Positions 1 through 8,185 of a DNA stretch of 8,186 nt are shown one piece after another. Source of the stretch: a virus (taxonomy: Monodnaviria; Loebvirae; Hofneiviricota; Faserviricetes; Tubulavirales; Inoviridae); the IMG/VR virus record IMGVR_UViG_2537561932_000001. One strand, given 5' to 3'. Under the pieces are notes generated by a model. The model made no database searches and had not been told where the DNA came from. It worked only from the letters and a program-made list of their open reading frames with translations. The translations under genes were made by a program, and so were the position numbers. Every line of letters starts with the position of its first letter. The first letter of the stretch is position 1.

Positions 1-13
1 CATTATGCGCACT
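1..13 (-). other. dif: Partial dif-like XerC/XerD recombination site, truncated by the window edge
   Basis: Reverse complement of 1..13 is AGTGCGCATAATG, matching 12 of 13 positions of the E. coli dif XerC arm plus the first two central bases (GGTGCGCATAA-TG). The rest of the site would lie upstream of position 1. Confidence 0.5.
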
Positions 14-320
14 GGCGTTGTGGTAGCTGAATTAAGGTGTCCGTGTGGGTACACAAACCCGGGAGTAAAAAAAGAAAACGCCTTATAACCTGGGAAAGTT
101 ATAAAGCGTCCCGGAAAATCCAGAAATGGATACAATGAAATATCCGTCTCAGTCAACGTAATTTACGTCTCAATCAACGTGATATACGGCCTTAACTGAC
201 ATTATGTGTCTACTACCTACTCACCCTCACATAGATGAGCAGCAAGACTATAACAAGTAAACATTACGGCGGATAACACCTGCAGACCTCTTGTTGAAAA
301 TTCCGGCTCAAAAGACGGCC
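11..320. repeat. Tandem direct repeat, copy A (about 310 bp, non-coding)
   Basis: 11..120 aligns with 321..427 at roughly 80 percent identity (ctggcgttgtg..gctgaatt..gtgtgggtacac; gtaaaaaaagaaaacgcc; taacctgggaaagttataa). The 3-prime ends also align (ttgaaaattccggctcaaaagacggcc). The middle is more diverged. No ORF of 60 aa or more. Confidence 0.8.
83..104. other. Conserved hairpin in repeat copy A (7-bp stem, 8-nt loop CTGGGAAA)
   Basis: TTATAAC (83..89) pairs with GTTATAA (98..104). The same loop and stem recur in copy B. Confidence 0.5.
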
Positions 321-5620: not shown

Positions 5621-7496
<1,876 letters not shown>

Positions 7497-7709
7497 ATGA
7501 AAAAAGAAACAAAGCGCGGAGACACAACCGTAAGGATTAACGAAAACAGAAAACTGGAGCTAAAACGAAGAGTGCTGGAAATCGGTAATAAAACAGGTGA
7601 GCTACTAAAACCATCAGAGATAGTAAACCACTTAATAGACAACTACTTAGATGATGCGGTGAAAGATCTAATAAGCAAAGAAGAACTTAAGAAAAAAAAG
7701 GCAATGTGA
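7497..7709 (+). CDS. Putative ribbon-helix-helix transcriptional regulator (phage repressor candidate), 70 aa
   Basis: Divergent from the Rep operon, as repressors are in other filamentous phages. RBS GAGG 8 nt before ATG 7497 (the track starts at TTG 7494). The pattern TTVRINE, then NRKLELKRRVLEIG, then a GNKTGE turn, then LLKPSEIVNHLIDNYL is compatible with strand-helix-helix. Lysine-rich tail. Confidence 0.5.
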   Translation: MKKETKRGDTTVRINENRKLELKRRVLEIGNKTGELLKPSEIVNHLIDNYLDDAVKDLISKEELKKKKAM

Positions 7710-7767
7710 TCCCTTTTCCTGCATTCAGCAGACTACCCGCGAAGGATCGAAAGGATACGGTTTAACT

Positions 7768-7785
7768 GGAAACCCTTGAGTTTCC
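7768..7785 (+). other. Small hairpin (6-bp stem GGAAAC/GTTTCC, loop CCTTGA)
   Basis: Inverted repeat read directly from the sequence. Confidence 0.3.
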
Positions 7786-7795
7786 GTTGACTCTA

Positions 7796-7822
7796 CCCCC
7801 GTGTTACAAGACGGGGGTTTTT
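7796..7822 (+). terminator. Rho-independent terminator downstream of the regulator gene
   Basis: CCCCCGT (7796..7802) pairs with ACGGGGG (7811..7817), loop GTTACAAG, followed by TTTTT (7818..7822). Confidence 0.6.
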
Positions 7823-8011
7823 CTCCCGGCCTGTAACACATCGCTCTCTGATGTTAATGCAGGCGCTCCGCTCCTCGCAGGTTGTCGTTGTCGGCGTCCT
7901 CCTCCCGTCGTCCTTCTTCGCCTCCAACCTGCTGCGGTGCGGTACGACTGGATTAAGGGCGATTCAACTTCGTTACATGGACATTTAAAAAACAAAAGCA
8001 TGAGGGGAAGA

Positions 8012-8185
8012 ATGAACAACTGGAGTGAGATCATATTAGACCTGCTGATGAAGCACATAATAGGTGGCGCTGCGATTGGCGTGGCTATCCTGTTGTTTGC
8101 CGGAGTGATTTTTCCTGTTGCGCTGAAGATAAGGAAGCTCACTGGCAGGAAAAAACAGCGAATAAAACAGAAACTCATCAGTTAA
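8012..8185 (+). CDS. Hypothetical small single-pass membrane protein, 57 aa
   Basis: ATG 8012 preceded by GAGGGG with a 6-nt spacer. MNNWSEIILDLLMKHIIGGAAIGVAILLFAGVIFPVALKIRKLTGRKKQRIKQKLIS: one hydrophobic helix and a strongly basic C-terminal tail. The upstream in-frame extension to 7787 lacks an RBS and crosses the terminator hairpin. Confidence 0.5.
   Translation: MNNWSEIILDLLMKHIIGGAAIGVAILLFAGVIFPVALKIRKLTGRKKQRIKQKLIS

Follow-up and report, generated by a model that had tools for sequence, protein, structure and literature searches.

A small membrane-protein gene and a mobile non-coding cassette at the attP end of a filamentous prophage of Escherichia coli

The 8,186-nucleotide stretch of DNA analysed here (IMG/VR record IMGVR_UViG_2537561932_000001, referred to below as the window) corresponds to a filamentous (inovirus) prophage integrated at dif in the enterotoxigenic Escherichia coli (ETEC) strain E24377A. 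The E24377A record NC_009801.1 is 100% identical to the window and contains the genes of a filamentous prophage, and the last 787 bases of the window match at 100% in at least ten complete E. coli genomes, including E24377A. Positions 7710-8185, which are the subject of this report, constitute the end of the regulator-strand (minus-sense) side of the prophage, up to its attachment site attP. Two genes are encoded on the plus strand, a putative regulator of 70 amino acids (aa; 7497-7709) and a 57-aa open reading frame (ORF; 8012-8185), and between them lie a non-coding hairpin block and a cassette that is also found on small plasmids lacking the ORF. The 57-aa protein is an accessory small membrane protein of a CTX-type inovirus.

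Both prophage ends can be recognised. In the coordinates of the E24377A locus (L001), window position 1 corresponds to 4602. The left prophage end is marked by the chromosomal dif site, to which window positions 1-13 belong; the full site, AGTGCGCATAATGTATATTATGTTAAAT on the minus strand, reaches 15 nt beyond the left edge of the window, and the dif pattern is found there with one mismatch (L001 4587-4614). At the right end, two inverted dif-like sites surround a GC-rich hairpin (L001 12790-12890), 4 nt past the end of the window and the stop codon of the 57-aa gene. Beyond the outer of these two sites, whose XerC arm GGTGCGCATAA is of the host type, lies hipA. As single-stranded DNA (ssDNA), the attP segment folds into a forked hairpin of -37.5 kcal/mol (z -8.8) with an unpaired centre of 6 nt. 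The right-end site is a CTXphi-type attP. The prophage shows the arrangement of CTXphi-type integrative mobile elements exploiting Xer (IMEX), with dif on one side, a hybrid dif-like site on the other and inverted sites that form a forked hairpin; no recombinase is present in its gene list, and it occurs in tandem arrays of up to ten copies per genome. The GC hairpin at the apex of attP is flanked by an A-run and a T-run and looks like a form of bidirectional terminator, at which transcription of both the 57-aa gene and the secretin operon would end.

Beyond the dif location, the missing integrase, the forked-hairpin attP and the tandem arrays, the phage resembles the CTXphi-type IMEX inoviruses (CTXphi, RS1, CUS-1phi of E. 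coli O18:K1 and Ypfphi of Yersinia pestis) in the divergent arrangement of its regulator and Rep_trans (RstA-like) initiator, in its Zot-like pI protein and in the accessory genes beside attP. It differs from them in that it has its own secretin gene, and in that the accessory gene at attP encodes the 57-aa membrane protein and not ctxAB. CUS-1phi of E. coli and Ypfphi of Yersinia are listed as CTX-type relatives in a review (PMC4246890), and their likeness to the phage is taken from that listing. The phage collection contained no close DNA relative of the window, and the UPphi phages of E. coli belong to another group, which is IKe-like.

The 57-aa coding sequence (RefSeq WP_001409659.1) is the last gene before attP. 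It is preceded by a Shine-Dalgarno (SD) sequence, GAGGGG (8002-8007; AAGGGG in relatives), located 4-6 nt before the ATG at position 8012. Kyte-Doolittle means over 19 residues exceed 2.2 for residues 15-40, while the last 19 residues include nine K/R and no acidic residue (+9); the N-terminal segment has a net charge of -1, from which an N-out/C-in topology is predicted. AlphaFold returns one featureless helix for residues 3-56 (pLDDT 77). An earlier note, made from the sequence alone, had described a well-placed ribosome-binding site, a single transmembrane (TM) helix and a Lys/Arg-rich C-terminus, and each of these features is present. The same note had asked whether the gene lies inside the prophage or is a conserved host gene. 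Its position between dif and the attP-derived hybrid site places it inside, and it is found in only 22 of 5426 complete E. coli genomes, in up to ten copies per genome, repeated with the phage unit: once per unit in tandem arrays and always as the last gene before attP. Most carriers are human, ETEC-type isolates.

The gene has been maintained in changing surroundings. An identical protein is encoded behind at least four different upstream modules, with the surrounding DNA being 86-90% identical: an RHH-like regulator with a Rep_trans initiator (in the window), two HTH regulators with other Reps, and a DUF2726 protein accompanied by a "replication endonuclease". AST240-type phages share the window's regulator and hairpin, and their downstream segment is swapped for a diverged version (type B, as distinct from type A of the window) with an unannotated 46-aa ORF at the same place; a 50-aa homologue, in the corresponding position, occurs in a remnant on an IncFII plasmid. 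Although the divergent homologues share only 24-35% identity, D10, L11, L12, M13, K14, I17, G19, G23 and P35 are invariant across five sequences, and the family is characterised by the motif (I/V)(L/M)DLLMK near the N-terminus, a G19xxxG23 helix-packing motif and P35. Pairwise dN/dS values, calculated from few sites, are 0.35-0.6. Because an SD sequence is present, the frame is intact and the protein identical despite diverged DNA, the motifs are kept and dN/dS is below 1, the ORF is taken as coding, and the sequence data make it very probable that it is a real membrane-protein gene inside the prophage.

Some of these data could also be read as an ordinary stretch of phage DNA, made up of a regulator terminator, a 5' untranslated region or spacer and a neutral, hitch-hiking "moron" ORF. 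The family is tiny and limited to Escherichia, its dN/dS is only moderately below 1, and several copies are disrupted, by an IS3 insertion, by a frameshifted tail, or by an ATG>ATA change plus an insertion. Neutrality is nevertheless difficult to reconcile with a protein that stays identical where the neighbouring phage DNA differs by 10-14% and with motifs that are invariant at such low overall identity, and the spread of a fixed-orientation cassette to unrelated replicons is hard to explain for a neutral spacer. An ordinary stretch is therefore considered unlikely. In a separate observation, NZ_AP045060.1 (9613 bp, circular), recorded as a plasmid, resembles an episomal copy of a related filamentous phage; it contains attP and the cassette together with a disrupted small ORF (ATG>ATA plus an insertion), fragmented phage gene annotations (e.g. 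a 276-nt replication-domain ORF) and an ISEc31 insertion.

The 57-aa family is an orphan as far as sequence searches reach, with no known toxin, defence or phage family matched. WP_001409659.1 gave nothing significant in Pfam, PHROGs, PADLOC, NCBIfam or the PDB sequences. The best profile score was obtained with the Fst toxin model of NCBIfam, at 13.8 bits against a cut-off of 26 (E 0.039); the protein matches no known toxin family, in line with the earlier note, in the sense that no toxin profile reaches its threshold. A word-indexed search of 5.8 billion clustered proteins returned five near-identical clusters from E. coli, and a family profile increased this to about 12 clusters, all of them E. 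coli-named or from ENA/Logan assemblies (gut metagenome), by adding type B relatives of 42-50 aa, a partial 61-aa sequence and one weak match. The full HMMER pass over 1.84 billion representatives gave a single match, to a near-identical E. coli protein, and the family was absent from the representative genomes of 185,579 species. IMG/VR contains six loci, which fall into the same two types.

The DNA in front of the ORF had been described as about 190 nt of C/T-rich leader. This description fits the core at 7860-7935, where the C+T content is 71% and only four A occur in 76 nt, but not the whole of 7823-8011 (55%). The conserved unit, the type A cassette (7842-7950, assigned to the minus strand and pyrimidine-rich on the plus strand), is non-coding and independent of the Rep type: in the aligned copies, the region from about 7842 to 7950 is nearly invariant among phages with unrelated regulator and Rep modules, and its conservation equals that of the ORF. 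Coding on either strand of the cassette is ruled out by 1-nt indels that break the frames in relatives. The same kind of indel disrupts a minus-strand ORF of 124 aa (7804-8178) and an in-frame upstream extension of the 57-aa ORF, both of which were rejected as coding, and no upstream ORF is conserved, which bears out the earlier remark that the leader has no convincing ORF start. Rfam searches at E<=10 over L001 11900-13000 yielded noise only. A structured RNA was discarded on the basis of fold z-scores of -0.18, -1.3 and +0.4 relative to shuffled sequence. A role as an Xer accessory, cer-like or dif-related site was also discarded, since a scan of the cassette-bearing small plasmids for a dif-like core, with up to 7 mismatches allowed, found none, and a degenerate dif site picked by eye at 7828-7860 was unconvincing. 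The cassette has no match in characterised phages.

It does recur in several other replicons. With the AST240 version as query, the type B core was found on plasmids of 1959-2760 bp in E. coli and E. albertii, and the core is also present in large-plasmid remnants and in two other kinds of inovirus that contain a phospholipase-D (PLD) gene (L016 and L017). In L017 (NZ_CP098223.1; Z0117-type), the core (L017 1501-1567) is intergenic, 270 nt past the secretin gene, and the small ORF has no homologue nearby. PLD-type inoviruses with a secretin gene are integrated near ybiB or sanA (L017 and ten similar genomes; L016). The type B element of the Z0117-type phage is a near-perfect 45-bp hairpin (-50.4 kcal/mol, z -12.9), whose position after the secretin gene is like that of a packaging signal; the AST240 copy retains only the hairpin tip. 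The type A core, together with the hairpin block from 7730 onwards, is found on the 2732-bp plasmid p16F5M1D103. ORF-less copies of the cassette are carried by plasmids of 2012, 2732 and 2751 bp, which encode G2P-like, Rep_1 and Rep_trans-like Reps, respectively, and these three Reps have no BLASTP similarity to one another or to the phage Reps. The plasmids were accordingly rejected as deletion derivatives of the phages. Within the plasmids of 2.0-2.8 kb, the non-coding cassettes shared with window 7730-7950 are located at L003 1662-1979, L010 14-128 and 1953-1991, and L011 2341-2416.

In every phage backbone examined and in all three plasmid types, the cassette has the same orientation, with its purine-rich complement on the rep-sense strand. 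In inoviruses and rolling-circle plasmids, this is the strand that is displaced or packaged as ssDNA. Non-coding sequence, occurrence in rolling-circle replication (RCR) replicons with unrelated initiators and a fixed orientation relative to the displaced strand are features of single-strand origin (sso) cassettes. The idea that the 190-nt stretch is a plain mRNA leader is not upheld, since the core of the stretch is mobile, does not code for protein and recurs in other inoviruses and on small RCR plasmids where the ORF is missing.

The cassette is joined on its left to the hairpin block 7730-7845, which follows the regulator gene. This gene (plus strand) is divergent from the rep operon, with divergent promoter-like sites at 7351-7378 (plus) and 7422-7393 (minus); its product matches phrog_2503 (E 1.5e-27), a phrog without assigned function, and neither Pfam nor PDB gave a match for it. 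The first element of the block is a small plus-strand hairpin, GGAAAC-CCTTGA-GTTTCC (7769-7786), kept in the AST240-type phage and in the 2732-bp plasmid. The second is the terminator hairpin that the earlier note had placed downstream of the regulator: ACCCCCGT and ACGGGGGT at 7795-7818 form 8 bp, six of them GC, around an 8-nt loop, and TTTTTCT follows (7795-7823, plus strand; -16.0 kcal/mol). The count of terminator-like sites (one in 1 kb, with 1.3 expected) is not above chance, but the hairpin lies 86 nt past the regulator stop codon and is conserved in relatives. With its GC-rich stem, the U-run directly behind it and its place after the regulator gene on the strand of that gene, it has the make-up of an intrinsic terminator for the regulator transcript. 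The T-run is not kept in relatives; it reads TTTATCC in AST240-type copies, and none follows the analogous hairpins of JNE, Sx181 and p2012. The loop motif GTGTWACARR also occurs in the 2012-bp plasmid and in phages of the JNE and Sx181 types, there within a hairpin that has a different stem and no T-run. The 7795-7823 hairpin can end the regulator transcript in this phage, and termination is probably not its sole role.

An alternative pairing within the block, also pointed out previously, is present as well. GTGTTACA (7801-7808) pairs with TGTAACAC (7832-7839, plus strand, just before the recombination junction at about 7842) in the minimum-free-energy (MFE) fold of 7780-7845, which reaches -21.3 to -21.5 kcal/mol (z -2.2), compared with the -16.0 kcal/mol of the terminator hairpin. 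The pairing is not conserved, however. At 7832-7839, relatives read TGCAAACA or CCAAACAC, the full 8-bp pairing is restricted to the E24377A and RM14721 copies, and 4-6 nt of it are left in the 2732-bp plasmid, RIVM166 and AST240. Because the alternative pairing weakens and the T-run degrades in relatives, a conserved attenuator appears unlikely from the aligned copies. The block accompanies the Rep_trans module in E24377A-, AST240- and RIVM166-type phages and is present on a Rep_1 plasmid too. Three occurrences of the 8- to 10-mer (G)TGTAACAC(AT) were noticed, one of them in complementary form within the loop of the hairpin (7801-7808) and the others just before the module junction (7832-7841) and in the centre of attP (L001 12864-12874), which may be due to chance or may be a trace of recombination.

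CTXphi genome production depends on RCR (PMC4246890). In the phages compared here, the exchanged modules all join the cassette at about 7842. RCR of CTXphi starts at the origin of one prophage and ends at the origin of the following one, so that hybrid genomes are joined at the plus-strand origin, and such joints were reportedly described by Davis and Waldor in 2000. By analogy, the junction at about 7842 may mark the plus-strand origin of the E24377A phage. The cassette itself would act on the phage (+) ssDNA, which corresponds to the minus strand of the window, as a host-dependent minus-strand origin and/or a packaging signal, as in the intergenic region of the Ff phages; besides the minus origin, the packaging signal is the only other such element in that region. 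The hairpin block 7730-7845 would probably also be part of this cis-acting ssDNA element. This interpretation follows from the fact that the cassette is Rep-independent, orientation-fixed, non-coding and exchanged among rolling-circle replicons, and on these grounds a Rep-independent element for ssDNA replication or packaging is the somewhat favoured reading of the cassette. Like the Ff (M13/f1) intergenic region and the sso of RCR plasmids, the cassette is non-coding, orientation-specific, Rep-independent and exchangeable between initiators, and it occupies a comparable place, after gene IV and just upstream of the (+)-strand replication module in Ff terms. It differs from them in that it shows no sequence similarity and no Rfam match, and in that type A is devoid of the long stable hairpins of Ff.

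The distribution of the cassette on small plasmids suggests a further step. In the 2012-bp plasmid, the cassette fills much of the approximately 350 nt of non-coding DNA, the only such space in the plasmid, and lies upstream of the heptamer CTTGATA, which is similar to the nick site used by HUH-type initiators. The three small plasmid types also share an acidic ORF of 75-76 aa without a Pfam match (L003 1177-1404, L010 274-501, L011 1949-2179); it is part of a conserved plasmid backbone, which in L010 includes the CTTGATA nick-like motif. Among 56 records with the type B cassette, 15 are plasmids smaller than 3 kb, found in 14 strains. A chromosomal or large-plasmid copy of the cassette is also present in 10 of these 14 strains, compared with about 41 of 5426 genomes overall; the co-occurrence was established by strain name in eight cases and by adjacent accession numbers in two, and resampling of ETEC lineages inflates the association. 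When the 2732-bp plasmid was compared with the prophage of its own host, a 58-nt hairpin element was 90% and the cassette core 92% identical. This co-occurrence and sharing of plasmid and phage raise the possibility that the region 7730-7950 serves as a Rep-independent packaging signal and minus origin, that the plasmids of 2-2.8 kb are natural phagemid-like satellites that the co-occurring dif prophages convert, package and spread, and that the 57-aa protein might recognise the signal at the membrane. Taken as a whole, this scenario is regarded as rather improbable. It would have a parallel in the TLCphi and RS1 satellites and in laboratory phagemids, which are likewise small replicons that lack morphogenesis genes and have cis elements in common with a co-resident filamentous helper phage. 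The plasmids described here differ from these satellites by their own, unrelated RCR Reps and by the absence of a dif-like site.

A related proposal sees the 57-aa protein as a morphogenetic or virion protein that would use its membrane anchor and basic tail to bind the neighbouring packaging signal on ssDNA and so initiate assembly, similar to pVII/pIX or a Pf3-type coat protein, and which the cassette plasmids would use in trans. The architecture of the protein is indeed coat-like, with an acidic N-out end, a TM helix and a basic C-in tail, and the ORF-less small plasmids mostly co-occur with a cassette-bearing phage. The gene adjoins the cassette in all phages and remnants, and the cassette type (A or B) matches the protein type, but this co-variation is expected from simple linkage, and in PLD-type inoviruses the cassette occurs without any homologue of the protein. 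No similarity to coat families was detected in PHROG, Pfam or PDB. The gene order also disagrees with a structural role. The minus strand encodes the secretin, Zot-like pI, pVI-like and pIII-like proteins, the coat protein, a small ORF, an ssDNA-binding-like protein, the Rep_trans-type initiator and a 65-aa protein. All genes for replication and morphogenesis are on this strand, and the 57-aa gene follows the regulator on the other. In addition, the phage already has a canonical gene for a coat protein with a signal peptide, as well as a small ORF that is pVII/IX-like. A virion protein is the least probable of the functions considered for the 57-aa protein.

Outside the region of interest, a tandem duplication of about 300 nt (window 12-320 and 322-590; 84-88% identity) separates dif from the secretin gene; each copy contains a minus-strand hairpin followed by a T-run (79-109 and 383-413), and RefSeq annotates a 41-aa ORF at 623-748, just past the second copy. 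On the other side of the prophage, about 1 kb of the 3' part of hipA is deleted in E24377A from approximately the stop-codon position beside the prophage end, which leaves the N-terminal domain only (L001 12960-13234, compared with L009 3960-5294); hipA is intact in other carriers.

Expression of the 57-aa gene is best considered together with a possible toxin function. A relaxed scan detected no sigma-70-like promoter between the regulator and the ORF, nor an antisense one on the minus strand over 7700-8290, although such consensus scans may miss weak promoters; the only sigma-70-like site upstream on the plus strand is that of the regulator. The 57-aa protein would accordingly be made by read-through from the regulator promoter, and in JNE- and Sx181-type phages no terminator is present between the upstream gene and the ORF. 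No antisense terminator was seen, and no complementary sequence, as expected for a trans-acting RNA, was found elsewhere in the phage. These negative results bear on the proposal that the locus is an addiction module similar to type I toxin-antitoxin systems, in which a membrane-depolarising 57-aa toxin stabilises the prophage or plasmid and its translation is held off by the anti-SD-rich leader and an unseen antisense RNA. With fewer than 60 aa, one TM helix and a positively charged end, the protein is comparable to the type I toxins Fst/Ldr, Hok, TisB and ZorO, which also share a long upstream untranslated region that is able to mask the SD; the leader contains several CCTCC motifs, and its MFE folds pair the SD region. 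Furthermore, three large plasmids and a decayed prophage in a chromosome retain the cassette and the ORF as an isolated remnant flanked by IS elements, and the Fst profile gives the faint match mentioned above. The match is far below its cut-off, however, no other family profile reaches its threshold, the leader folds no better than shuffled sequence, the upstream cassette also exists without any ORF, and in the type B homologues there is no SD that could be masked. The type I toxin reading is likewise unlikely, and less likely than an accessory membrane protein of the exclusion type.

The preferred reading of the 57-aa protein is that of an accessory inner-membrane protein expressed by the prophage, whose GxxxG helix would pack against itself or against a host inner-membrane protein. 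This reading is favoured because the protein is encoded on the immunity strand of a temperate inovirus, is small with an N-out/C-in topology and has an invariant GxxxG motif. Its most likely role would be to keep related filamentous phages from entering the cell, or to alter the envelope in some other way; such a superinfection-exclusion or envelope-modulating function is possible, and is put forward tentatively. A precedent is provided by PfsE (PA0721) of the Pseudomonas phage Pf4, which is reported to block superinfection (PMC8764522). PfsE is also a very small inner-membrane protein of an integrated filamentous phage, without sequence similarity to the 57-aa protein. Its gene is located in the structural cluster, and PfsE acts on type IV pili. 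In the study of Roux et al., two of the ten hypothetical inovirus proteins tested had exclusion activity (PMC6813254).

The overall explanation of the prophage end, in which the hairpin block and the mobile cassette would act in cis on the (+) ssDNA and the gene would encode an accessory membrane protein, is given an even chance. Several observations weigh against it. The linkage of gene, attP and cassette could be mere adjacency, and nothing ties the 57-aa protein to phage entry specifically. A good terminator separates the regulator from the ORF in this phage, so read-through is not assured, and the type B homologues have no clear SD. As ssDNA, the type A copy of the window folds weakly (z -1.4), and the register of its closing stem shifts between variants without clean covariation, while the T-G wobbles conserved in the aligned type B hairpins favour folding of the pyrimidine-rich strand, which would fit a role as RNA and not one of the (+) ssDNA. 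Finally, a literature search found no paper that mentions the accession WP_001409659.1. The earlier view of a small membrane protein acting as a prophage toxin, exclusion or host-modulating factor behind a leader is retained in part: the gene is real, prophage-borne and unrecognised, and the leader is better explained by an origin or packaging region of the phage that acts in cis.

Pathogenic E. coli commonly carry filamentous prophages at dif, and the accessory genes of these prophages are the usual site of functions that affect the host, such as toxins, exclusion factors or effects on biofilms. The 57-aa protein is a testable candidate for such a function, being conserved, predicted to insert into the membrane, encoded beside the immunity gene and placed outside every annotated family. 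The sharing of the cassette with tiny plasmids is a side lead of more interest than the 57-aa gene. It provides a lead on the lagging-strand replication of cryptic 2-kb plasmids in E. coli, and it raises the question of whether some cryptic plasmids move between cells inside filamentous virions.

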